Below are positions 28,445-48,540 of a stretch of 64,000 nucleotides of DNA, in pieces (position 1 is the stretch's first letter; the number at the start of each line of letters is the position of its first letter). This DNA is from a virus. The notes below the pieces were generated by a model. That model saw only the letters and a list, made by a program, of their open reading frames with translations. It ran no database searches and was not told the origin of the DNA. Location: the IMG/VR virus record IMGVR_UViG_3300009155_000040, positions 75,072 through 139,071 of that record, one strand, 5' to 3'. A program made the translations under genes and the position numbers.

Positions 28445-28774
28445 ATGGCAACAGGTTTATTAGGCCAAGCAGCATTGGCAGCAATTACAAATACTTCGGT
28501 ATACACGGTGCCGTCAAACACGTTCACAGTATTTTCTGTAAGTGTTTTAAACAGAAGTAGCTCAGCAGCGTCTACTATTAGAATAGGACTCTGCGCATCG
28601 GCAACGCCGGCAGCAAACGGATCTGAATGGATTGAATACGATGTATCATTAGATCCGGGCGGTGTATTAGAAAGAACCGGACTTATGATGAACGCAGGAA
28701 AAATTCTTGTTGTTTACGCTTCCGGAGCACAAGTTTCTGTAAGTGCCTTTGGCATCGAAACATCTACAGTATAA
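28445..28774 (+). CDS. Small beta-sandwich structural protein
   Basis: TSVYTVPS...SVSVLNR...YDVSL.PGGVLERTGL; third member of the 110-aa family. Confidence 0.65.
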   Translation: MATGLLGQAALAAITNTSVYTVPSNTFTVFSVSVLNRSSSAASTIRIGLCASATPAANGSEWIEYDVSLDPGGVLERTGLMMNAGKILVVYASGAQVSVSAFGIETSTV

Positions 28775-28777
28775 ATA
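28770..28777 (+). promoter_or_regulatory. Late promoter TATAAATA for the Cys-rich cluster
   Basis: Exact consensus followed by an AGGAG SD and the ATG at 28794. Confidence 0.7.
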
Positions 28778-28793
28778 TTAGGAGAAATATAAA

Positions 28794-29120
28794 ATGGGAC
28801 GTCAAGTATCATCGTTTGGAGCAGGAAGTGTTACTAGTTTAACGCTGACATCCAACACTACAATTGCATCAGGTGTGAGTGTATTTGCCAACGCAACTTC
28901 AGGGGCATTCACAATCACATTACCAGCATCACCGGCAGACGGCGACACAGTTCAAATTATTGACGTCGCAGGTATTTGCCAAACAAACAACATCACGATC
29001 GCAAGAAACGGTTCAAAAATTCAAAACTTATCAGAAGATTTAGTCATGAATCTCAACAACGCAGCCATTACAATGATCTATTCAGGTGTAACATTTGGCT
29101 GGGTATTCATTGGACCATAA
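28794..29120 (+). CDS. Tail-fibre adaptor/connector-like small protein (108 aa)
   Basis: ANATSGAFTITLPASPADGDTVQIIDVAG...NNITIARNGSKI is a widespread phage fibre module. Confidence 0.7.
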   Translation: MGRQVSSFGAGSVTSLTLTSNTTIASGVSVFANATSGAFTITLPASPADGDTVQIIDVAGICQTNNITIARNGSKIQNLSEDLVMNLNNAAITMIYSGVTFGWVFIGP

Positions 29121-29133
29121 TTAGGAAAATATA

Positions 29134-30159
29134 ATGCCAAAATTATCAGACCTATTATCTACAAGAGAAATTACTTCTAACGCCACTAATCTGGAAAAAG
29201 GTAAAGTCTGGGTCGTCACTGTAGGTAGTATGTATGCTTGTACTAGAAGTGAAAGCGCATACTGCTGGAAATCTCCTGGTTGCGGAACATTAACTATTGA
29301 AATGTGGGGAGCCTCGGGCGGCGGCTCTCGTATGTGCTGTTGCGGATTTGGATTACCAGGAAACCCCGCAGCATATGCAAGAAAACAGATAGCAGTTTAC
29401 CCAGACTCACACATTTGCGGATGTCCAGGAATGGCCTGTAACTCGCACAGCCTGTGTTTCGACGGTTGCGGATTGCCAACATACTTGTGTTATTCTAATG
29501 CTAGAGACTTATGTGGGTTCTCAGCAGGATGCATGTGCGCACAAGGCGGACGTGGCGGAGTAGCAATCTGTTCAACAGGTACAGGCGGATATTGTTGCTA
29601 TGTGGCCAACGGCTTCTGCAATACCTTAATCGGTTCAAGTTGCGGCATTATTTGTAATCACTGCCCGGGAGCTTGGTTAGGTTGCGGGTACGGCGGAGAC
29701 ATTGGCTGCTGTGGTTGTATTTCTTGTGTGATATTTAAAGGTACAGGTAATGCACTTTGCCCATGCCAAACAGATACAATTCTTGCTACATCGGCAATGG
29801 TGTTTGGTGAATGCGGTGCTAACATCATTTATACACACGACGACGATAACGAACATACACAATGGAGTGGTAACGGTTATCACTCAGCGGCTCATACATT
29901 AAATTTTGCATCAAAATCACCAACAGGCGGTATTCCATTTACAATTTGTTATAACGGTAACCAACAATGCGGATGTTATGAAGCATCCGGATGTAACCCG
30001 TTATTCCCATATGGTGTTCCTGGAGGTCAACCATTCCCATGTCCAGACGTTCGTGACCATGGACGTAGAGGCGGCCACGGTGCTATTAGATTAACATATC
30101 GTGGATCAGGAATCATGGCAAACCAAAACGCTAGTGGAAAACTTGGAGGCGCATACTAA
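29134..30159 (+). CDS. Cys-rich glycine-rich-domain (adhesin-like) protein 1
   Basis: WKSPG.GTLTIEMWGASGGGS and C-terminal GRRGGHGAIRLTY frame a Gly-rich domain. About 35 Cys in 341 aa by my count. Confidence 0.7.
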   Translation: MPKLSDLLSTREITSNATNLEKGKVWVVTVGSMYACTRSESAYCWKSPGCGTLTIEMWGASGGGSRMCCCGFGLPGNPAAYARKQIAVYPDSHICGCPGMACNSHSLCFDGCGLPTYLCYSNARDLCGFSAGCMCAQGGRGGVAICSTGTGGYCCYVANGFCNTLIGSSCGIICNHCPGAWLGCGYGGDIGCCGCISCVIFKGTGNALCPCQTDTILATSAMVFGECGANIIYTHDDDNEHTQWSGNGYHSAAHTLNFASKSPTGGIPFTICYNGNQQCGCYEASGCNPLFPYGVPGGQPFPCPDVRDHGRRGGHGAIRLTYRGSGIMANQNASGKLGGAY

Positions 30160-30160
30160 C

Positions 30161-31363
30161 ATGGCATTATTAACTCAATTATTAGGGAATAGAGAACAAG
30201 CCCAAAAAGACATGTTAGAAAAAGGCCGCATTTGGGTCTACTCCGACGGTAATATGTATTCTGGTTTCTGTAACGGCTTCTGTTGGAAGCCACCAGGATG
30301 CGGCAAAGCGATTATTGAAATTTGGGGTGCTGCAGGATCAACAGCAGAAATGTGTTGCTGTGGTCACGGTCTTCCGGGCAATCCTCCTGCTTACGTAAAA
30401 AAATGTATCTGCGTATGTCCGACAAACTATGTTTGTGGATACGTAGGACGTTCTTGCAACAACGCTGACGATTTGTGTTTCCGTGGTTGCTCAGAATCAT
30501 CTTGTGTATGTTGGTTTGGATGCTCACCGTGCGGATTATCCAGCGACGGTATTGACTGTAACGCACAAGCGTCGTGGAGAGGTAATAATCCATGGGGTTG
30601 GGGTAACGAAACTAACGTACTATCACAAAACTTTAATCTTAACAATAAGAAAATCAAAGACGAAGGCTACGGATTCAAATTTGGTAACACCTGTACCGGC
30701 GGTGGCATGTGCTATAACGCAGGCCAAACCAACGGTTGCTTGTGTGCTCAAGGTGGTCACGGCGGTATAAGCTATTGCATGGATACAAAATCTCCATTCT
30801 CTTGCTACATGACAGGCTATTTCTGTGGACAGCGTGTAGGTCCTGGACACAATATGTGTGATACAGGTAACTCAGCTTGCGGGCGTGTATGTCAATGGTG
30901 TCAAAACGGTAACAACAATGCTTGTGCGTGGGGCGGAGATGTTAACTGCTGCGGCTCATATTCATGCGTTGACTTCTTAGGCTGTATTCAAACTTGTCCA
31001 TGTATGACATTACATCACATTACCACTGCTGCTGGAGTTTATGCAGAAGACGGTGCAGTTATTTCATTCTACACAGACGGTGATACACCTGGTCAACGTT
31101 GGTCAGGTACAGGTACAGGTAGTTTGTTAAATTCATTACCAATGTTATCAAGAAGCCCATCACATACCATGTATTCTACATGTTGGAGTGGTGGTAACCC
31201 TTGCGGTTGTTACAACATGCAGGGATGTCATCACTTTGTTCCTTACGGTGTACCTGGTGTTGGTCCTAACCCTTGCGGTGACGTTCGAGATCACGGCATG
31301 AGAGGCGGTATGGGAATGATAAGAATTAAATATGTTCCAACTGACGGAGGCAATACGTACTAA
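30161..31363 (+). CDS. Cys-rich glycine-rich-domain protein 2 (400 aa)
   Basis: Paralogue of 29134 (WKPPG.GKAIIEIWGAAGS.AEMCCC); about 41 Cys. Start placed 1 nt after the previous stop. Confidence 0.7.
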   Translation: MALLTQLLGNREQAQKDMLEKGRIWVYSDGNMYSGFCNGFCWKPPGCGKAIIEIWGAAGSTAEMCCCGHGLPGNPPAYVKKCICVCPTNYVCGYVGRSCNNADDLCFRGCSESSCVCWFGCSPCGLSSDGIDCNAQASWRGNNPWGWGNETNVLSQNFNLNNKKIKDEGYGFKFGNTCTGGGMCYNAGQTNGCLCAQGGHGGISYCMDTKSPFSCYMTGYFCGQRVGPGHNMCDTGNSACGRVCQWCQNGNNNACAWGGDVNCCGSYSCVDFLGCIQTCPCMTLHHITTAAGVYAEDGAVISFYTDGDTPGQRWSGTGTGSLLNSLPMLSRSPSHTMYSTCWSGGNPCGCYNMQGCHHFVPYGVPGVGPNPCGDVRDHGMRGGMGMIRIKYVPTDGGNTY

Positions 31364-31364
31364 C

Positions 31365-32354
31365 ATGGCAACTTTAAAAGCATTAGTAGAAGCTAAACTA
31401 GACCAAATTGATTGGGACGAAGTTCAACTTGAAAAAGGTAAAGTATTTGCCTACAGTTCTGGAACTGAATACAACAACTTCTTAGGTGGGGTTTGTTGGG
31501 TAGCACCAGGAACTGGTAGAGCAATTATTGATATTTGGGGGGCAGGCGGTAGTGGTGCAAAAATGTGCTGCTGCGGTGGAGGCGTTCCAGGAAACCCAGG
31601 AGCATGGGCACGTAAGTGTATCTGTGTAGTAGCAGGATGTATTGTCTGCGGATACGTTGGCCGTTCTTGCAACAACTCAAACGATTTGTGTTTCAGGGGT
31701 TGTTCAGAAGCCACTTGCTTGTGCTGGAACGGAAAGAATCAATATACCGGTGCAACAACCAGCGGCTGCATGTGCGCACAAGGCGGACGCGGTGGACTAA
31801 CATTCTGTAATCCATCGGGTACACTGTTCTGCTGTTTCGTTGGCGCAAACTACTGTAACACTAACTATTCAAACGGAACTTGCGGTATTATCTGTAACTA
31901 TGGTTCAGGTACAGCCAGCTGCTGTGCAGAATCATACGGCGGTGATATCAATAAGAAAGGCGGATTTAGCTGCGTTACATTCTGGACATGTTATAGTAAC
32001 TGCCCATGTTCAACACAATTACACGTGGCAATTCCTCCAGGACTATTTGCCTGTGATGGCGGTGTTGTTACACACGGTGCAGAAAGTGATAACGGATTTG
32101 CCAACTGGTCAGGAATGGGATATCACCAATTTATCAACGGATTAAATGGAATGAATCGCAGCCCTGCACGTGGCGTACCGTTTAACACCTGCTGGATGTC
32201 TTCAAGAGCCTGCGGATGTTATGATGTTCAAGGATGCCAACCATTTTTCCCAACAGGCACAGGTGGCACCCCAGCTTTCCCATGCGGCGACGTTCGCGAT
32301 CACGCTTGGAGAGGTGGACACGGACTAATTAGAATTACATATCAAGAAAGATAA
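31365..32354 (+). CDS. Cys-rich glycine-rich-domain protein 3 (329 aa)
   Basis: Paralogue (WVAPGTGRAIIDIWGAGGSGAKMCCC); about 33 Cys. Start placed 1 nt after the previous stop. Confidence 0.7.
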   Translation: MATLKALVEAKLDQIDWDEVQLEKGKVFAYSSGTEYNNFLGGVCWVAPGTGRAIIDIWGAGGSGAKMCCCGGGVPGNPGAWARKCICVVAGCIVCGYVGRSCNNSNDLCFRGCSEATCLCWNGKNQYTGATTSGCMCAQGGRGGLTFCNPSGTLFCCFVGANYCNTNYSNGTCGIICNYGSGTASCCAESYGGDINKKGGFSCVTFWTCYSNCPCSTQLHVAIPPGLFACDGGVVTHGAESDNGFANWSGMGYHQFINGLNGMNRSPARGVPFNTCWMSSRACGCYDVQGCQPFFPTGTGGTPAFPCGDVRDHAWRGGHGLIRITYQER

Positions 32355-32366
32355 CGGAGTTATTAA

Positions 32367-33086
32367 ATGAAAAAAGTATTCACATCAGTATTGCCAGACG
32401 AGCCATACAAAACAACAACACATTTAAACAATACAGTTGAATGTACCTATGACGGTCCAAGATATCTATTGTTAAGAATTGTTGCTGAAACCGGTGCAAT
32501 ATTCTGCATTGACGAAGAAGAAGAAACAATTGAAAGAATTGAAGCTTGGAAAATCGAGCCTCATAAGCTAGAAGACGAAGGGCACTATCAAGTGGTTTTA
32601 GACGCTATGGAGCACACTTGGGAAGCTGCATACGTTACTGGTTATTATACTCACGAACCATTTGACAATCCTGTCTTTACAAACCCAGATGGCACAACAT
32701 GGACTTACCACTACGATGATACCAGCTGTGCAGTAGAGCAACCATTTTATGTTAACGACATGTTCCACGATAAAGCAACTGGCACTTGGAAACGTCCACG
32801 CTATCGCACACACGCTGTTGCAAAAAGAGATTTTTGGAACGGTGTAAAAGTTCAAATTGAAACGTATACTGCGGTATGTGAAGGTAGTTACCTTGAAAAA
32901 GGTTATACAGCAGAACAAGTCGCTGCATGCCAAGAACACTTAAATTGGTTATTAACTTGTGAAGAAAAATATAAAGATGTTGATCACTGGAAAATTCCAT
33001 TCCCAGCACTTAAAATTACAATGACAACACAAGAAAATCATGTACCAGGGGCAAATCCAGGGGCAAATACGATTCCTCAAAATTAA
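32367..33086 (+). CDS. Hypothetical protein, possibly a tail-fibre assembly chaperone (239 aa)
   Basis: Directly follows the adhesin-like genes. C-terminal YTAEQVAA...HWKIPFP loosely resembles phage tail-assembly chaperones. Confidence 0.45.
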   Translation: MKKVFTSVLPDEPYKTTTHLNNTVECTYDGPRYLLLRIVAETGAIFCIDEEEETIERIEAWKIEPHKLEDEGHYQVVLDAMEHTWEAAYVTGYYTHEPFDNPVFTNPDGTTWTYHYDDTSCAVEQPFYVNDMFHDKATGTWKRPRYRTHAVAKRDFWNGVKVQIETYTAVCEGSYLEKGYTAEQVAACQEHLNWLLTCEEKYKDVDHWKIPFPALKITMTTQENHVPGANPGANTIPQN

Positions 33087-33105
33087 TTTTACCGTAAACC
33101 AAGAT

Positions 33106-33160
33106 TAGCCTTGTGCTTTTCGTTATATGACTATATAATGAAGTACAAGGCTATTTTTTT
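33106..33160 (+). terminator. Long hairpin terminator (21 bp, 2 G-U pairs, 2-nt bulge) plus T7
   Basis: TAGCCTTGTGCTTTTCGTTATAT-GACT-ATATAATGAAGTACAAGGCTA-TTTTTTT. Confidence 0.75.
33111..33139 (+). promoter_or_regulatory. Sigma70-type promoter embedded in the hairpin
   Basis: TTGTGC (33111-33116) - 17 nt - TATAAT (33134-33139); GGAG SD at 33161. Confidence 0.6.
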
Positions 33161-33170
33161 GGAGTAAAAA

Positions 33171-34115
33171 TTGACTAATAGATCCAAAGCATTTTTTATC
33201 AACGGCGGCGCTGGCCGCATGATTAGTGCAGTTCCAGCACTGGAAAAATATCAGGAAGAATCAGGCGACAAAGACTTTATCATAGTCTGTGAAGGCGGCA
33301 CTGATGTATTCAAAGGACACCCAACACTTGACGATCATACCTATGATGTATGGCACAAAAATCTTTTTAAAGATTCACTGAGACAAAGAGAAATCGTAAC
33401 AACAGAACCGTATCGTGTCTGGGAATACTATAATCAAAAATGCTCAATAGCACAGGCATTTGACATTCAGATCAATAATAAAGGCATTCGAGACCTTCCT
33501 CGCCCAACGCTAAAACTAAGCAAAGACGAATTGCTTACAGGAAGACAGCTAGTTAGTGAAGTTAAAAAGAAATTAAAAAAAGAAAAAATTGTAGTATTTC
33601 AACCATTTGGTCGCGGTATTGAATACATTGATGAAACACTTATTGATAAAACTGCACGTAGTTTTGAATTAAAAGATGTTAAATCTATTGTTAAGAAATT
33701 ACAAAAAGAAGATGTTGGCATTATCATGATGAGCGAGTTTAAAGTTGATTTTTCAGACTCTAAACTCAAAGACGAAGTAGCCATGCCAGAAAGTGCAAAC
33801 TTCCGCATGTGGGCAGCTATTATCAAATATGCAGACTATTTTTTAGGGTGCGACAGTTTAGGACAGCATTTGGCATACGCTATGGATCGATCAGCAGTGG
33901 TAGTTACTGGTTCAACATTTCCTATTAACGTTTCGTATCCAGATGAACCAAGTATTGAAATACTTGATATGGGTGAAATACATAGAGAGTATGATCCAAT
34001 ACGTATTTTCCCAGATGAAAGAGTTTCAAGATTAAACGAAAATATCATGGCTATGACCGATGATATCACAACACTAGTAGTAAATCACGTTTTAGGAAAA
34101 AAAGATGACAGTTAA
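33171..34115 (+). CDS. GT9-like (heptosyltransferase-fold) glycosyltransferase, TTG start
   Basis: GGAGRMISAVPAL at the N-terminus, IVVFQPFG, and FLGCDSLGQHLAYA...VVVTGST match GT9 motifs. Confidence 0.7.
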   Translation: MTNRSKAFFINGGAGRMISAVPALEKYQEESGDKDFIIVCEGGTDVFKGHPTLDDHTYDVWHKNLFKDSLRQREIVTTEPYRVWEYYNQKCSIAQAFDIQINNKGIRDLPRPTLKLSKDELLTGRQLVSEVKKKLKKEKIVVFQPFGRGIEYIDETLIDKTARSFELKDVKSIVKKLQKEDVGIIMMSEFKVDFSDSKLKDEVAMPESANFRMWAAIIKYADYFLGCDSLGQHLAYAMDRSAVVVTGSTFPINVSYPDEPSIEILDMGEIHREYDPIRIFPDERVSRLNENIMAMTDDITTLVVNHVLGKKDDS

Positions 34116-35934
34116 ATCAATTAATACACAGAAAGAACACAAGCCAGTTTGGATTGCAGCAATTGCCCGAGGACACAATTCGGGGATCTGTCTACTTAAA
34201 GATGGAGAAGTAGTATTCAGTATCGAAGAAGAACGTCTCTCAAGACAAAAATATGACGGTGGCCCATTTGCGTCGATGGTAAAGATCAAAGAGTATACTG
34301 ATAAACTTGATTATCTAGTGATTGCACATACACAGCCTTTACAAGAAACTGCTGGTAAGATCGATTATACTGGTGACGATGTATACACAGGCCTTGCACG
34401 TAAATTAAATTTAATTGAAAGAAAAGTTCCAGATCTACATCGTCATCCTCAAGTTATTGATTTGGCGTTTATGCATCATAAACTACATGCTGCCTGTGCA
34501 TTTTATCGTTCGGGTTGGGAAGATGCAGTATCGTTAATCGTTGACGGTGCTGGTACATTCTACCCTATGCAATACAACAATCAAGGTATTTGGTTATGGG
34601 AAGTTGAGTCTATTGTTGACTGTAACTATCCTGCAAACTTTAAGACTTTGTATAAGCATTATGGTGCTAAAGAACCAATCGCAGGTTCGTTCATTCCAGA
34701 ATTTGATTCTAGCCCATTAGGCGAAGAAGGCGAAACACACATGGCCTATATTAGCGATCGTGCCGGCATTGTTAAAGTCTACGAAGGTGTAACAGAGTAC
34801 TGCGGTTTTAGTGCTATCGAAGCTGGAAAGACCATGGGACTGTTTCCATACGGTAAGCCAAACGACAAGATCCCTAAACTGTTTGACGAGACAGGAAAAA
34901 TTCCATTGTCAAACAGAAACTTGATGGTTCCTCGTTACCCAATGAGCTCAACTGTCAACATGAATCTATTTGATTACCTTGAAGAAATGCCAGAAGACAT
35001 GGACAGTGATGTTACACTGATGCAGAACAGACGAGATTTAGCCTACGCATGTCAAACACAGACCCAAGAACAGGTTGTAAATCTTATTCGCAAGGCTGCA
35101 GAACTGTCTGGAAAGAAACGTGTGGTAATCAGCGGTGGATACGGTTTGAACTGTGTTGCTAACTATTACTATCTTGAGCAATTAAAAGATGATGGAATTG
35201 AAATTTACGTAGAACCTATCAGCAATGATGCAGGTACTGCTATCGGTGCAGCACTTATTTTCTGGCATGGTATGCAAGAAGATACAACTATTCGCCCATA
35301 CGGTTCGTTGTACCTTGGTCCAGAATATACTTACACGCAAGATGAAATTGCATCAAAAGTAGCAGCAGTTGGTGGAGAACTTACTGATGCTACAGATAAA
35401 GATATTGTTAAGCTATTGCGTGAAAAGAACATTGTTACAATTTTCCAAGGACGTTCAGAAAACGGCCCACGTGCATTAGGCAATCGTAGTGTATTGTTTG
35501 ATCCAACTTTCCCAGACGGTAAAGACTTTGTTAACGAAGTTAAACATCGTGAATACTTCCGTCCGTTTGCTGGATCAATTCTAGAAGAAGATGTACACGA
35601 CTGGTTTGATTTACGCGGCATGAAAAGCAGCCCGCATATGATGTATGCTGTAAACTGCCAGCCCGGAATTGAAGAAAAGATTCCAAGTATTATCCATGAA
35701 GATCATACTTGCCGTATCCAAACTGTTAATCCTGAGCAGAACAAACACTACTATGATCTAATTAAAGCATTTAAAGAAGAAACAGGAATCCCAATCTTGT
35801 TTAACACCAGCTTTAATCTAGGTGGCGAACCTTTAGTAGAAACACTAGATGATGCGCTATGGACTCTGAAAAATTCAGATATCGAATATCTATATTTGCC
35901 AGAACACGGTAAACTAGTAAAAATAGGATATTAA
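34105..35934 (+). CDS. Carbamoyltransferase, NodU/CmcH/TobZ family
   Basis: HHKLHAACAF, IVDGAG, GKTMGL.PYG, SGGYGLNCVAN, NDAGTAIGAA, GPRALGNRS, KHREYFRPFA and NTSFNLGGEPLVET motifs. Confidence 0.95.
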   Translation: MTVKSINTQKEHKPVWIAAIARGHNSGICLLKDGEVVFSIEEERLSRQKYDGGPFASMVKIKEYTDKLDYLVIAHTQPLQETAGKIDYTGDDVYTGLARKLNLIERKVPDLHRHPQVIDLAFMHHKLHAACAFYRSGWEDAVSLIVDGAGTFYPMQYNNQGIWLWEVESIVDCNYPANFKTLYKHYGAKEPIAGSFIPEFDSSPLGEEGETHMAYISDRAGIVKVYEGVTEYCGFSAIEAGKTMGLFPYGKPNDKIPKLFDETGKIPLSNRNLMVPRYPMSSTVNMNLFDYLEEMPEDMDSDVTLMQNRRDLAYACQTQTQEQVVNLIRKAAELSGKKRVVISGGYGLNCVANYYYLEQLKDDGIEIYVEPISNDAGTAIGAALIFWHGMQEDTTIRPYGSLYLGPEYTYTQDEIASKVAAVGGELTDATDKDIVKLLREKNIVTIFQGRSENGPRALGNRSVLFDPTFPDGKDFVNEVKHREYFRPFAGSILEEDVHDWFDLRGMKSSPHMMYAVNCQPGIEEKIPSIIHEDHTCRIQTVNPEQNKHYYDLIKAFKEETGIPILFNTSFNLGGEPLVETLDDALWTLKNSDIEYLYLPEHGKLVKIGY

Positions 35935-35935
35935 C

Positions 35936-35958
35936 AAAGCCCCGAAAGGGGCTTTTTT
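35936..35958 (+). terminator. Rho-independent terminator closing the glycosyltransferase-carbamoyltransferase operon
   Basis: AAAGCCCC-GAAA-GGGGCTTT followed by TTT. Confidence 0.92.
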
Positions 35959-35978
35959 ATTATCTGCTAAATAGTTGT

Positions 35979-36422
35979 ATGTTAAATTTTGCACGTTATT
36001 TCCTTAAAGGTATCAAAAATACGCTACGCCTTCAAAATGGAGTTAATTTCTCCTATAAAGGTCCGTGGCAAACGGTTATTTCCGCCACAGTTTTAGACGA
36101 GTGGTATGTTGGCGAAATCTGTGCTGCTGAATATACAGTGGTAGTAGATGTGGGCGCAAATAGAAAAGAAATGATCAAATGCCTAGTAGTTGCAGGACCA
36201 AACCAAGCAAACTTAACAGTGTTTGGTCGAACAAACATAAATGAAAATCTTATTGATTTATCCGCTATAGTAACCGCATCGAAAGTACAACTAATAGCTC
36301 AACCAGCATCTAGCCCAGACGGCAGCACATATGATAATTCTAGTTTATTAGTAGGCAGTAAAGCATTTTTTAGCGCAACGTATTATGCTACTGTTAATGA
36401 TATAACCAGTTCCCAGGTGTAA
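35979..36422 (+). CDS. Hypothetical structural protein (147 aa)
   Basis: ATG lies 5 nt after TAAATA (35968-35973); beta-rich. Confidence 0.65.
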   Translation: MLNFARYFLKGIKNTLRLQNGVNFSYKGPWQTVISATVLDEWYVGEICAAEYTVVVDVGANRKEMIKCLVVAGPNQANLTVFGRTNINENLIDLSAIVTASKVQLIAQPASSPDGSTYDNSSLLVGSKAFFSATYYATVNDITSSQV

Positions 36423-36497
36423 GGTGCAGTGTTACCAAAAGACTAAATACACATGTCTTAGCGGAAGTTGTAGTTGCAGTAAAATAGCGGAGATCAC

Positions 36498-36998
36498 ATG
36501 ACAACCAGATATATACCCTTTGAGTCAAAAAGCGGCTTTAAAAGTCCGGGCTTTTCAGTTAATGAAAACGGTGACCTCACAGTTAGTGGAAACATAGACA
36601 CCACAGGCAGTTTCAAAATCAACGGCGTACCCATTATTGATCCTAGCGATTCTATAGTCGGTCTAGATCCCGTAATTCAGCGAGCACTAGGTTTAAAAGA
36701 AATCGGAACATTAGATTATCTCAATGTTGCCGGCGACCTAGTAGTATCAAATGCTTCAACAGCTTACATTAGAATCCAAGGCGGTACAGGTCTTATAGAC
36801 AACGTCAGTATTGGTTCTCAATTTCCTGCAGACGGAAATTTTACTTCATTAAATGTTGGCCCAGGCGACAGCACAGGCGAACTAACAGTTCAAGGGGACA
36901 TTTACATTACCAACCCTCCAACATTATCATCACATGCAACAAGAAAAGATTATGTCGATGCACGAGTTTCGGCATTTGCAATAGCGTTTGGCGCTTAA
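36498..36998 (+). CDS. Tail-appendage structural protein (166 aa)
   Basis: FESKSGF.SPGFSV..NG start and C-terminal HATRKDYVD..V.AFAIAFG fibre motif; TAAATA at 36444. Confidence 0.65.
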   Translation: MTTRYIPFESKSGFKSPGFSVNENGDLTVSGNIDTTGSFKINGVPIIDPSDSIVGLDPVIQRALGLKEIGTLDYLNVAGDLVVSNASTAYIRIQGGTGLIDNVSIGSQFPADGNFTSLNVGPGDSTGELTVQGDIYITNPPTLSSHATRKDYVDARVSAFAIAFGA

Positions 36999-47826: not shown

Positions 47827-47832
47827 ATTCCT

Positions 47833-47861
47833 TTGACTTTTTAGTAAATCTATATTATAAT
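47833..47861 (+). promoter_or_regulatory. Sigma70-type early promoter
   Basis: TTGACT - 17 nt - TATAAT, followed by an AGGAG SD. Confidence 0.85.
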
Positions 47862-47880: not shown

Positions 47881-48540
47881 ATGATCATAGGTATTTGCGG
47901 TTTTATCGGCAGCGGCAAGGACACAGTCGCTGACTATCTAGTTAACTTCCACGAATTTAGACGAGAATCATTTGCAAGCACACTTAAAGATGCTGTGGCA
48001 AATGTCTTTGGCTGGGACCGAACAATGCTTGAAGGGCGCACTAAAGAAGCACGTGAGTGGCGCGAACAAGTAGATCCTTGGTGGGCCGAACGATTAGATA
48101 TGCCTACACTCACTCCTCGGTGGGTATTACAATTCTGGGGTACTGAAGTTTGCCGCAAAAGTTTCCACGATGATATTTGGATTGCCAGCTTAGAAAACAA
48201 AATCCGCAACAGCAAAGACAATGTGGTGATCAGTGATTGTCGCTTTCCTAATGAAATCTCCGCAATTAAAAATGCCGGTGGAACGATTGTTTGGGTACAG
48301 AGAGGTGCGTTACCCGAATGGTACGAACACGCTGTAGCTGCTAACAAAGGTTCAAATCTAGCAATCAACGAAATGAAAAGATTAGGAATCCATGCCAGCG
48401 AATGGGCTTGGTTAGGCAGTAAGTTTGATATTATTATTGATAATAACGGTACTATCGATCAGTTGTATCAACAGTCTGCAAATTTGTTAGAAATCGGCAA
48501 TGAGGTCTCCTTGTTTCCAAGCAATACCCTCTTTGCCTAA
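47881..48540 (+). CDS. gp1: Deoxynucleoside monophosphate kinase
   Basis: IIGICGFIGSGKDT P-loop, SFASTLKDAV, TPRWVLQFWGTEVCR and VVISDCRFPNE motifs. Confidence 0.92.
   Translation: MIIGICGFIGSGKDTVADYLVNFHEFRRESFASTLKDAVANVFGWDRTMLEGRTKEAREWREQVDPWWAERLDMPTLTPRWVLQFWGTEVCRKSFHDDIWIASLENKIRNSKDNVVISDCRFPNEISAIKNAGGTIVWVQRGALPEWYEHAVAANKGSNLAINEMKRLGIHASEWAWLGSKFDIIIDNNGTIDQLYQQSANLLEIGNEVSLFPSNTLFA

Follow-up and report, generated by a model that had tools for sequence, protein, structure and literature searches.

Why should a phage carry a pair of sugar-tailoring enzymes amid its tail-fibre genes, and which molecule do they decorate? The question is raised by positions 28445-35965 of the window (the whole stretch of 64,000 nucleotides analysed), whose source is a large uncultured T4-like aquatic phage. 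The gene layout given by a first-pass annotation was confirmed, with all listed genes on the + strand: two small fibre-like genes (f1 and f2), three tandem Cys/Gly-rich paralogues (A, B and C), a 239-aa gene (protein D) and a two-gene unit, flanked on both sides by hairpin terminators, encoding a glycosyltransferase-like enzyme (GT) and a carbamoyltransferase (CT). The giant proteins flanking this cassette (2065, 2508 and 2166 aa) match tail-fibre and virion PHROGs. The genes present, their folds and families and their genomic linkage, all directly observed, are best explained by a conserved cassette that couples the receptor-binding tips of fibres with a pair of sugar-tailoring enzymes, which most likely places a carbamoylated sugar either on the fibres of the phage itself or on the receptor that they bind at the host surface.

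The product of f1 (28445..28774, +; 109 aa) is a small fibre-like protein matching phrog_11338 (tail fibre, E 1.7e-07), while f2 (28794..29120, +; 108 aa) encodes a small fibre N-terminal or adaptor-like protein (best PHROG E 3.2e-20) with sixteen PHROG matches, most of which fall on the N-terminal segments of tail-fibre, spike and baseplate proteins. Both match N-terminal parts of tail-fibre PHROGs, and each was found in 68 of 80 related IMG/VR loci (GT identity 53-97%), f1 as the homologue of P-SSM2_302 and S-CAM3 gp160. Paralogue A (29134..30159, +; 341 aa, 35 Cys) was recognized by its composition and its alignment with family A2/A3; B (30161..31363, +; 400 aa) and C (31365..32354, +; 329 aa) each have their true ATG right after the stop of the preceding gene, the start of B having been reassigned to the ATG at 30161 from the conserved N-terminus MAxLxxLL. 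B is also longer by an insertion of some 70 aa that A and C lack. Each paralogue contains 33-41 Cys (9.7-10.3%) and 15.5-16.7% Gly, and members of the family match Pfam Gly_rich_2. In Foldseek, the AF2 model of C (pLDDT 84.1) best matches 7ypx/7yfw, the fibre of cyanophage Pam3, together with 9d93, the tail tip of Bxb1, and the TNF-like plus glycine-rich domain of ALK/LTK. The three adhesin-like Cys-rich paralogues of the first annotation are thereby borne out and, as modelled, are Pam3-gp24-like fibre tips with a TNF-like plus glycine-rich domain. They diverge down to 25-30% identity, with 2-4 paralogues per phage.

Concerning Pam3, the resemblance to its fibre gp24 and chaperone gp25 (PDB 7YPX; PMC9608196) includes a predicted N-terminal helix followed by a beta-rich body, and a small gene placed after the fibre gene or genes. 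However, the window proteins have about 10% Cys, with CCC motifs in place of the Pam3 glycine runs, and the cassette family has 2-4 tandem paralogues where Pam3 has one. Protein D (32367..33086, +; phrog_9740, E 6.5e-07) occupies the fibre-chaperone position, lies between the Cys-rich genes and GT in 71 of the 80 loci and is 26% identical to S-CAM3 gp155 over its full length. Pfam, Atlas and fold searches gave no lead for it, and similarity to gp25/Tfa chaperones was not detectable in family, PHROG and fold comparisons, so that its earlier "chaperone-like" label reflects position and is backed by neither family nor fold.

GT (33171..34115, +; 314 aa; phrog_8954, E 1.7e-137) starts at a TTG codon with GGAG 8 nt upstream. 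It has no Pfam match of its own, while Glyco_transf_9 is matched by 35 of its 79 relatives. Its AF2 model (pLDDT 95.6) shows a GT-B fold, and every one of its best PDB matches belongs to GT9: 3tov, WaaF 1psw, TibC 4rap and WaaC 2h1h (Foldseek E 1e-10 to 1e-9). The motif D228-S-x-G-x-H233 is invariant, and across the 79 relatives (26-50% identical) there is almost no change in the donor-binding motif or at many positions of the N-domain. The GT9-like identity proposed earlier holds on these grounds, as an assignment by predicted fold and remote profile only; Arg occupies the position of the GT9 catalytic Asp, the base in LPS heptosyltransferases. The start of CT (34105..35934, +; 609 aa) overlaps the stop of GT by 11 nt. 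CT matches Carbam_trans_C (E 3.3e-57) and Carbam_trans_N (E 3.1e-26), well over the Pfam cut-offs, and its homologues in the PDB are 7xb6, GdmN, NovN and TobZ (E 1e-57 to 1e-42). By its sequence it is a full O-carbamoyltransferase of the NodU/CmcH/TobZ type with both domains present, in agreement with the earlier identification.

The fibre genes and the enzyme unit appear to be transcribed from different signals. A late-promoter-like box, TATAAATA (28770..28777, +), lies 17 nt before f2 and is the candidate start of a late fibre-tip operon; exact copies occur three times in the window, no excess over chance, but its place just before f2 is consistent with the (C/T/A)TAAATA motif upstream of other structural genes, and we regard it as a putative late promoter. 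Upstream of GT there is a long terminator-like hairpin with a T-run (33101..33160, +; dG -26.5 kcal/mol, z -6.5), enclosing the sigma70-type promoter-like sequence TTGTGC-17-TATAAT. The hairpin is kept in 26/26 aligned relatives (dG -13.7 to -31.8), with stems that differ among them (GCCTTG/CAAGGC, GGTTCTG/CAGAACC, GTCCTG/CAGGAC), and wherever GT identity is 72% or more, TATAAT nearly always sits between -31 and -37. This putative GT promoter resembles TTGACT-17-TATAAT before the dNMP kinase gene and is unlike the late boxes used by the neighbours of the pair. In P-SSM2 two consensus TTGACT-17-TATAAT promoters precede GT, whereas S-CAM3 has a late-type CTAAATA box there. An intrinsic terminator (35936..35965, +) closes the unit, its hairpin (35936-35955) having an 8-bp GC-rich stem, AAAGCCCC/GGGGCTTT, and a GAAA loop before the T-run; a CTAAATA late-type box lies between it and the next gene. 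The pair had been credited with its own promoter and terminator: the terminator is clear, and the promoter is predicted from its motif.

The first-pass annotation had tied the pair to the Cys-rich genes, and a survey of related phages found the same association. CT adjoins GT in 80/80 loci, and all 71 loci with enough flank have, upstream of the pair, two or three ORFs whose Cys content exceeds 6%, although the loci are phylogenetically dependent and these counts overstate the independent support. In two loci the pair is inverted with respect to the Cys cluster, yet still adjacent to it. Of 12 cultured cyanomyoviruses, the same three (S-SSM7, S-CAM3 and P-SSM2) have both GT and the Cys-rich family and the other nine have neither, while CT alone occurs in five. 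Vibrio phage D505 has a distant GT homologue with the same motifs, also between giant tail proteins, for which a Cys-rich partner was not found. The linkage of GT/CT to Cys-rich fibre genes across distant phages is strong, being both tight and specific.

The cassette is the same as the cyanomyovirus "LPS gene" block T4-GC 297-308 of P-SSM2 and S-SSM7, published without an assigned function (Sullivan et al. 2010, PMC3037559); its members are PSSM2_302-313, SSSM7_114-133 and S-CAM3 gp160-148. Block and window carry orthologous genes that run in one order, from the small fibre proteins through the Cys-rich paralogues and protein D to GT and CT, with 41-57% identity for GT and 47-61% for CT. However, the window GT lacks the C-terminal extension of 55-100 aa of the cultured-phage proteins, and the lineage to which it belongs lacks psbA and has genomes near 350 kb in size. 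The supply of sugar is also arranged differently. In S-SSM7, S-CAM3 and P-SSM2 the heptose-pathway genes directly follow CT, and in about 10 of the 80 loci one or more of them stand beside the pair. Two complete relatives, G001 (353 kb) and G002 (364 kb), encode an NDP-heptose pathway; in G001, with which the window is collinear, it lies about 95 kb from the cassette, which is about 65 kb past the end of the present contig. The search for sugar-nucleotide genes, suggested earlier, was thus positive in the relatives and negative on the phage's own 139-kb contig, beyond whose end its pathway would lie. The donor of GT is probably a nucleotide-activated heptose made by the phage.

As to which acceptor is used, which enzyme acts first and with what effect, we tentatively favour, short of calling it probable, glycosylation of the phage's own fibres. 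A late operon would supply two small fibre-base proteins, three Cys/Gly-rich tips and the 239-aa accessory protein, and a unit transcribed apart would supply a cytoplasmic GT9-fold transferase and an O-carbamoyltransferase dependent on ATP and carbamoyl phosphate. In the cytoplasm, GT would add heptose to the tip proteins in the way TibC and Aah modify autotransporter adhesins; CT would next cap a hydroxyl of a sugar, much as WapO acts on O-7 of LPS heptose, so that the decorated tip may be altered in stability or receptor specificity. One precedent is TibC, among the top fold matches of GT. TibC/Aah with the adhesins TibA/AIDA-I (PDB 4RAP, 4RB4) share with GT the GT9-type GT-B fold (Foldseek E 8e-10), a cytoplasmic location and a gene beside a beta-rich adhesin, and an ADP-heptose donor is plausible. 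However, GT is only 10-12% identical to them and has Arg at the catalytic-base position, and a protein acceptor is only putative here. TibC has a Cys-based iron-finger, which is impossible in GT with its 3 Cys. WaaC/WaaF and WapO (PA5005, heptose 7-O-carbamoyltransferase; PMC8005017) of Pseudomonas combine the same two enzyme families on one sugar and are the only documented heptose-carbamoyl chemistry, but the window genes belong to a phage, sit within a tail-fibre module linked to fibre tips and do not conserve the catalytic Asp. Virion glycosylation is described in mycobacteriophages (Freeman et al. 2023, cited in PMC12619734), where virion proteins are the substrates of glycosyltransferases encoded in the structural region; as described there, these actinobacteriophage enzymes belong to other GT families and act on capsid and tail-tube C-termini, with neither heptose nor carbamoyl involved. 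The idea of an S-linked sugar on Cys found no pointer, and the Vibrio-phage homologue, having the same motifs and no Cys-rich partner, counts against this idea and also against fibre glycosylation. Of the earlier reading, the enzyme identities, the fibre linkage and the donor pathway in relatives stand, and a virion protein is a candidate acceptor.

Remodelling of host LPS, previously listed as an alternative, is still a serious rival, possible if doubtful. At the inner membrane the pair would add a carbamoyl-heptose cap to the LPS core, or to some other lipid-linked glycan, so that the infected cell and its debris stop displaying the receptor of the Cys-rich fibres, and superinfection and loss of progeny are prevented; similar reasoning applies to T5 Llp, Cor and the seroconverting Gtr/Oac enzymes. 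The great majority of characterised GT9 enzymes are heptosyltransferases of the LPS core, WaaC and WaaF come out at the top in both the fold and the profile comparisons, and the known heptose carbamoylation is in the LPS core. A GT8 domain is fused to one member of the GT family, and as GT8 includes glycosyltransferases of the LPS core, the fusion points to oligosaccharide building and against fibre glycosylation. Terminator insulation and a sigma70-type promoter, doubled in P-SSM2, are unneeded by a dedicated fibre-modifying enzyme, and T5 llp/oad likewise sets an early-expressed gene beside a late one for receptor binding. Strict co-inheritance with one fibre family is equally expected if enzyme and fibre share a receptor, and a five-gene sugar-nucleotide pathway is a large outlay for a few fibre copies per virion but suits a high-flux product. 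The N-terminal domain of GT is basic (pI 8.5), but neither GT nor CT has an obvious hydrophobic N-terminal segment, and Arg stands where LPS heptosyltransferases have their catalytic Asp. Moreover, a single conserved receptor is not obvious, since the tips diverge down to 25-30% identity, with 2-4 per phage, and their carriers range from cultured cyanophages of Synechococcus and Prochlorococcus to psbA-less relatives of about 350 kb; the late-type box of S-CAM3 indicates that timing is not uniformly early.

DNA modification by the pair, also proposed before, is unlikely, and we give only a very slight chance to glycosylation or carbamoylation, or both, of a modified base. A NodU/TobZ-family enzyme does carbamoylate 5hmC in DNA, giving 5-carbamoyloxymethylcytosine (PMC8670742), phage GT-B enzymes with kinase, HAD and cytidylyltransferase helpers make heptosyl-5hmC (bioRxiv 10.1101/2023.12.21.572611), and the putative GT promoter is early-type. 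However, G001 (98% complete) and G002 (100%) lack the ThyA-like hydroxymethylase PF00303 and the C5-methyltransferase PF00145, and Tet_JBP was not found in them in a search without a positive control, which weakens this alternative. Characterised 5hmC carbamoyltransferases co-occur with ThyA-like genes, and those on unmodified contigs adjoin glycosyltransferases (PMC8670742); GT is GT9-like and not T4 beta-GT-like, and the strict fibre-gene linkage would be left unexplained. Another acceptor (protein D, a small molecule, or a polymer of the cell wall or capsule), or a GT that is a non-catalytic GT9-like sugar-binding or assembly factor, is rather unlikely. Arg in place of the catalytic Asp would fit, as would the non-enzymatic plant NDH subunits (9grx, 7wff) among the fold matches, which have this fold outside glycan synthesis. 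Antibiotic tailoring is the role of most solved CT homologues, and the cluster of some lineages also has genes for a halogenase, a 2OG-oxygenase and a cupin, as in natural-product tailoring, but a core natural-product synthase was not found nearby. The near-invariance of the donor-binding motif and of many N-domain residues in the 79 relatives and the co-occurrence of the pair with a heptose-nucleotide pathway also count against this reading.

The region, whose genes all lie on the plus strand, can be divided into four blocks. Two small fibre-like proteins, f1 (28445-28774) and f2 (28794-29120), both resembling the N-terminal parts of fibre proteins, form the first, with a TATAAATA box 17 nt upstream of f2. 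Three close-packed Cys/Gly-rich paralogues (29134-30159, 30161-31363 and 31365-32354) form the second, and protein D (32367-33086), which follows them directly, the third. After a spacer of 84 nt comes the enzyme pair: a heptosyltransferase-like gene (GT, 33171-34115), with a TTG start and GGAG upstream, and a carbamoyltransferase gene (CT, 34105-35934), which overlaps GT by 11 nt and is followed by a strong terminator (35936-35955). In most relatives, as in the window (35979-36998), the cassette is followed by gene E (147 aa, no family match, corresponding to part of a 517-aa protein in the complete relative G002) and gene F (166 aa, similar to fibre N-termini), each preceded by a CTAAATA box.

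The window is the final 64 kb of a 139,071-bp IMG/VR contig with a CheckV completeness of 40%. It spans the part of a T4-like myovirus genome that encodes tail and fibres, with PHROGs for sheath, tube, neck and baseplate and three giant fibre-like proteins (2065, 2508 and 2166 aa). Megablast of the region against cultured phages returned no close relative; by protein comparison, Kyanoviridae (S-CAM1, S-CAM3, Sf-FS3, S-SSM7, P-SSM2 and P-SSM5) are closest among cultured phages, and the nearest complete metagenomic relatives are G001 (353 kb, 98% complete) and G002 (364 kb, 100%). psbA was not found in either of these two genomes, and the lineage of the window appears to be a group of psbA-less T4-like phages of about 350 kb.

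The assignment of CT is unambiguous at the sequence level: the protein is predicted to be a two-domain O-carbamoyltransferase of the NodU/CmcH/TobZ type, with a Kae1-like N-terminal and a YrdC-like C-terminal domain, both over the Pfam cut-offs (PF02543, 93.1 bits against 24; PF16861, 193.2 bits against 27). It matches the solved enzymes 7xb6 (E 1e-57), GdmN (1e-46), NovN (1e-43) and TobZ (8e-43), with which its H-H-x-x-H, D-G and GPRALGNRS segments can be aligned. That the acceptor would be a sugar or other hydroxyl we infer only from the glycosyltransferase adjacent in 80 of 80 loci.

The GT family (phrog_8954) is large, with 2,912 proteins at 90% clustering by one word-index search and 405 clusters at 50% identity by exhaustive search. 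The window GT has no Pfam match at E 0.01, and its NCBIfam RfaQ match is below cut-off (16.5 bits against 467). Its AlphaFold (AF2) model, built from a 79-sequence alignment (pLDDT 95.6), is a GT-B fold of two Rossmann domains, whose top 14 Foldseek matches in the PDB are all GT9 (E 1e-10 to 7e-9), including 3tov (Veillonella GT9), 1psw (WaaF), 4rap (TibC), 2h1h (WaaC) and 2gt1. At the profile level the support for membership of PF01075 (Glyco_transf_9) is transitive only, coming from the 35 of 79 relatives that match this family (best E 1e-09); the family profile searched against the PDB ranked WaaF and WaaC first, at marginal E-values of 0.014-0.08. The C-domain carries the donor motif, D-(T/S)-G-x-x-H in GT9, as D228-S-x-G-x-H233, in which D228, S229 and H233 vary little or not at all and which aligns with D-T-G-L-S-H of WaaC and D-S-G-L-M-H of WaaF. 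In WaaC, Asp13 of the N-terminal G-D motif is the catalytic base. At this position the GT family reads G15-R16, with R16 at least 90% conserved and aligned, in a low-scoring stretch, with the Asp of the WaaC MGD, so that the catalytic-base Asp of GT9 is replaced by Arg; we accordingly call the protein GT9-fold and heptosyltransferase-like rather than a proven GT9 member.

The three paralogues contain 9.7-10.3% Cys and about 16% Gly, and have in common motifs including WGAxGxG..MCCCGxGxPGNP, GCxCAQGGxGG and RGGxGxIRxxY. The window's own Cys-rich proteins gave no Pfam match; 8 of the 23 aligned members of the family match Gly_rich_2 (PF21722, best E 1.5e-08), and Atlas features of the Cys-rich proteins indicate the same family. 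The AlphaFold model of the third paralogue (pLDDT 84.1) has an N-terminal helix (residues 4-18) and, after it, a body rich in beta strands. The structures it matches best in the PDB, at E 3e-05 to 6e-04 and with TM-scores that are modest (0.25-0.53), come from the cyanophage Pam3 fibre gp24 (7ypx, 7yfw), from mycobacteriophage Bxb1 tail-tip proteins (9d93) and from ALK/LTK (the TNF-like plus glycine-rich, or TG, domain); the model combines the N-terminal helix with the TNF-like/glycine-rich fold. In Pam3 this architecture is that of a receptor-binding fibre, and the next gene encodes a chaperone (PMC9608196). The first-pass annotation had described the Cys-rich proteins as adhesin-like, and the predicted fold bears this label out, since the Pam3 protein with that architecture binds the receptor. 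Its description of protein D as chaperone-like is derived from gene position: D, found in 71 of the 80 loci and 26% identical to S-CAM3 gp155, gave no family or fold lead in the searches made.

The association between these proteins and the enzyme pair was evaluated in 80 related IMG/VR loci (GT identity 53-97%). CT abuts GT in every one of them, and in all 71 scorable loci the pair has two or three ORFs of over 6% Cys upstream of it, counts that do not represent independent events, the loci being akin to one another. Wherever the flank suffices, the genes stand in the order f1, f2, two or three Cys-rich genes, D, GT, CT, E, F; at two loci (L079 and L081) the pair runs the other way with respect to the Cys-rich cluster, yet is adjacent to it. 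The same block is present in S-SSM7, S-CAM3 and P-SSM2. The survey of related phages proposed on first reading thus shows the pair linked to the Cys-rich genes.

Among 12 cultured cyanomyovirus genomes, profile searches found GT in three and the Cys-rich family in the same three, while CT was found in five, namely these three plus S-CAM8 and P-RSM4. We took the distribution of the Cys-rich family from profiles in place of tblastn, which gave no match with a window Cys-rich protein, possibly owing to the BLAST low-complexity filter, and matched only S-CAM1 and S-CAM3 with S-CAM3 gp158. Heptose genes have been reported in S-SM2 (PMC3037559), in which the profile searches found neither GT nor the Cys-rich family; the coupling is therefore specific to GT and the Cys-rich fibres. 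The lone CT of S-CAM8, a phage without a GT9-like gene, is convergent with a classical glycine-rich fibre gene (393 aa, 30% Gly, 0.3% Cys; L096 5977-8743); this CT also adjoins four 2OG-Fe(II) oxygenase genes. A distant GT homologue in Vibrio phage D505, which keeps the GR, EPY and DSxGxH motifs, is flanked by tail proteins 2109 and 1756 aa long, with no CT and no Cys-rich partner at the locus.

Of the sugar-nucleotide genes that the first-pass annotation had proposed to look for in the rest of the genome, those of the heptose pathway are absent from the 139-kb contig, while both complete relatives have such a cluster. Downstream of CT, the cultured cyanophages have genes with the annotations heptose-1-P adenylyltransferase, kinase, GmhA, cupin and epimerase. 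G001 and G002 possess a cluster of cupin, HAD phosphatase (GmhB-like), nucleotidyltransferase, PfkB kinase and SDR epimerase genes, located in G002 just past the giant fibre gene that follows CT-E-F and in G001 about 95 kb from GT, at 342-345 kb. The window is collinear with G001 (GT maps to 247.2 kb and the last ORF to 276.6 kb), and the cluster of G001 would have its counterpart some 65 kb beyond the point where our contig stops. We considered whether the absence from the contig indicated a phage devoid of heptose genes and rejected this interpretation, given that the contig is about 40% of the genome and collinear with G001. A nucleotide-heptose donor for this phage is a reasonable inference, and the kinase, GmhB-like HAD phosphatase, nucleotidyltransferase and epimerase genes of the relatives support the use of ADP-heptose by the putative glycosyltransferase. 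GmhA (PF13580) gave no match, even in the complete relatives with the rest of the pathway. The cupin gene (L094:7410-7808, L093:7442-7864; "cysteine dioxygenase" in cultured cyanophages) always accompanies the heptose genes and might be the missing isomerase in G001 and G002, or another tailoring enzyme. Clp protease, HNH endonuclease and aminotransferase genes flank the cluster in these genomes (L094), which were reached through loci L011 and L039.

In front of structural genes of the window stand (C/T/A)TAAATA boxes, in many cases directly behind a terminator (for example at 35965, 36445, 52981 and 57250), and the dNMP kinase gene (47881-48540), lying among neck and tail genes, has a consensus sigma70 promoter, TTGACT-17-TATAAT, at 47829-47861. 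The spacer between D and GT holds a long hairpin with a T-run (33101-33160; dG -26.5, z -6.5) that encloses TTGTGC-17-TATAAT, and may serve as both terminator and promoter. Folding the sequences one at a time, the MAFFT alignment being out of register in the right arm, we found the hairpin kept in 26 of 26 aligned relatives, with differing stem sequences and a nearly constant TATA box. From this conservation, and from the late boxes on neighbouring genes, the pair looks like a transcription unit of its own, probably early, inserted among late genes. GT is preceded in P-SSM2 by two consensus sigma70 promoters, in S-CAM3 by a terminator and then a late-type CTAAATA box, and in S-SSM7 by hardly any spacer, suggesting that the timing may differ between lineages.

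On what the pair acts is a matter of probabilities, and we tentatively favour, at somewhat below even chance, the decoration of the fibres. GT tracks a phage protein family and not a host, that family retains its conserved motifs in phages as different as cultured cyanophages and psbA-less relatives, and the tail-gene context recurs in the unrelated Vibrio phage. TibC and Aah, which heptosylate adhesins in the cytoplasm, offer direct precedents; TibC reportedly has a Cys-coordinated iron-finger and a dodecameric assembly, and the window GT differs from these enzymes in that, with only three Cys, such a finger is not possible. Action on the host envelope, masking the receptor, is a serious rival, only somewhat less likely. 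The chemistry of GT9, GT8 and WapO belongs to the LPS core, the pair is insulated and has a sigma70-type promoter-like box, a complete sugar-nucleotide pathway is suited to a product made in bulk, and genes that mask a receptor typically lie in linkage with the gene that binds it, as in the llp/oad arrangement of T5. Masking or superinfection-exclusion systems of this sort (T5 Llp, Cor, Gtr/Oac) would be expressed early beside the receptor-binding gene; in this clade and in P-SSM2 the pair has a sigma70-type box and terminator insulation, in S-CAM3 a late-type box.

Hypermodification of DNA, raised as an alternative on first reading, we regard as highly improbable. A NodU-type enzyme that carbamoylates 5hmC exists (PMC8670742), and so does heptose on 5hmC (bioRxiv 10.1101/2023.12.21.572611), but the 5hmC carbamoyltransferase system co-encodes a ThyA-like gene (Yang et al. 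2021), whereas a ThyA-like dCMP hydroxymethylase (PF00303) is absent from our contig, G001 and G002, the control genomes being positive. The complete relatives also lack C5-methyltransferase genes (their lack of Tet_JBP matches, in a search without positive control, carries little weight), and the linkage to fibres would stay unexplained. Some other acceptor, or a non-catalytic role, seems unlikely. Very unlikely, in our opinion, is that GT, with Arg for Asp, would add heptose to Cys thiols or another unconventional nucleophile on fibre tips of about 10% Cys, the sugar then being O-carbamoylated; beyond the Arg substitution and the Cys-rich neighbour nothing speaks for the S-linked sugar first suggested, and the D505 homologue, having no Cys-rich partner, argues against S-linkage as a family-wide trait.

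Within the cyanophage "LPS gene" clusters (PMC3037559), this cassette is the portion designated T4-GC 297-308, which is uncharacterised. New here are a phyletic table showing which of 12 cultured phages have GT and the Cys-rich family, a DNA-pathway search of complete relatives with negative outcome, the placing of the heptose pathway in complete collinear genomes, the comparison of promoters and terminators, and the explicit consideration of receptor masking. The GT family is abundant and present in cultured Synechococcus and Prochlorococcus phages, as "LPS genes" without assigned function since their description. If the pair decorates receptor-binding tips, the host range of major ocean and lake phages would hinge on a glycan ignored by sequence-based predictions; if it masks the receptor, lytic T4-like phages would possess an enzymatic system of superinfection exclusion and progeny protection. 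With either reading, cultured phage-host pairs make the question testable now. S-glycosylation, if true, would be a new class of post-translational modification, tuning host recognition in very abundant aquatic T4-like phages.

The architecture of GT varies across the family. The window protein (314 aa) is without the C-terminal extension of 55-100 aa present in its cultured-phage homologues, those of S-SSM7 (415 aa, L001:11995-13242), S-CAM3 (379 aa, L002:11998-13137) and P-SSM2 (370 aa, L003:12010-13122); the extension has no Pfam match. A metagenomic representative, P0259 (558 aa), is a natural fusion of a GT8 domain (47-212) with a GT9-like domain (250-518), which suggests that some members of the family assemble glycans of two sugars or more; scanning bacterial genomes with P0259 gave a match in one Bacteroidetes MAG, to the GT8 half only. 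A second GT9-like copy after CT, in the order GT-CT-GT, was observed at L048, L055-L057, L059, L061-L063, L065, L067-L070, L073 and L074.
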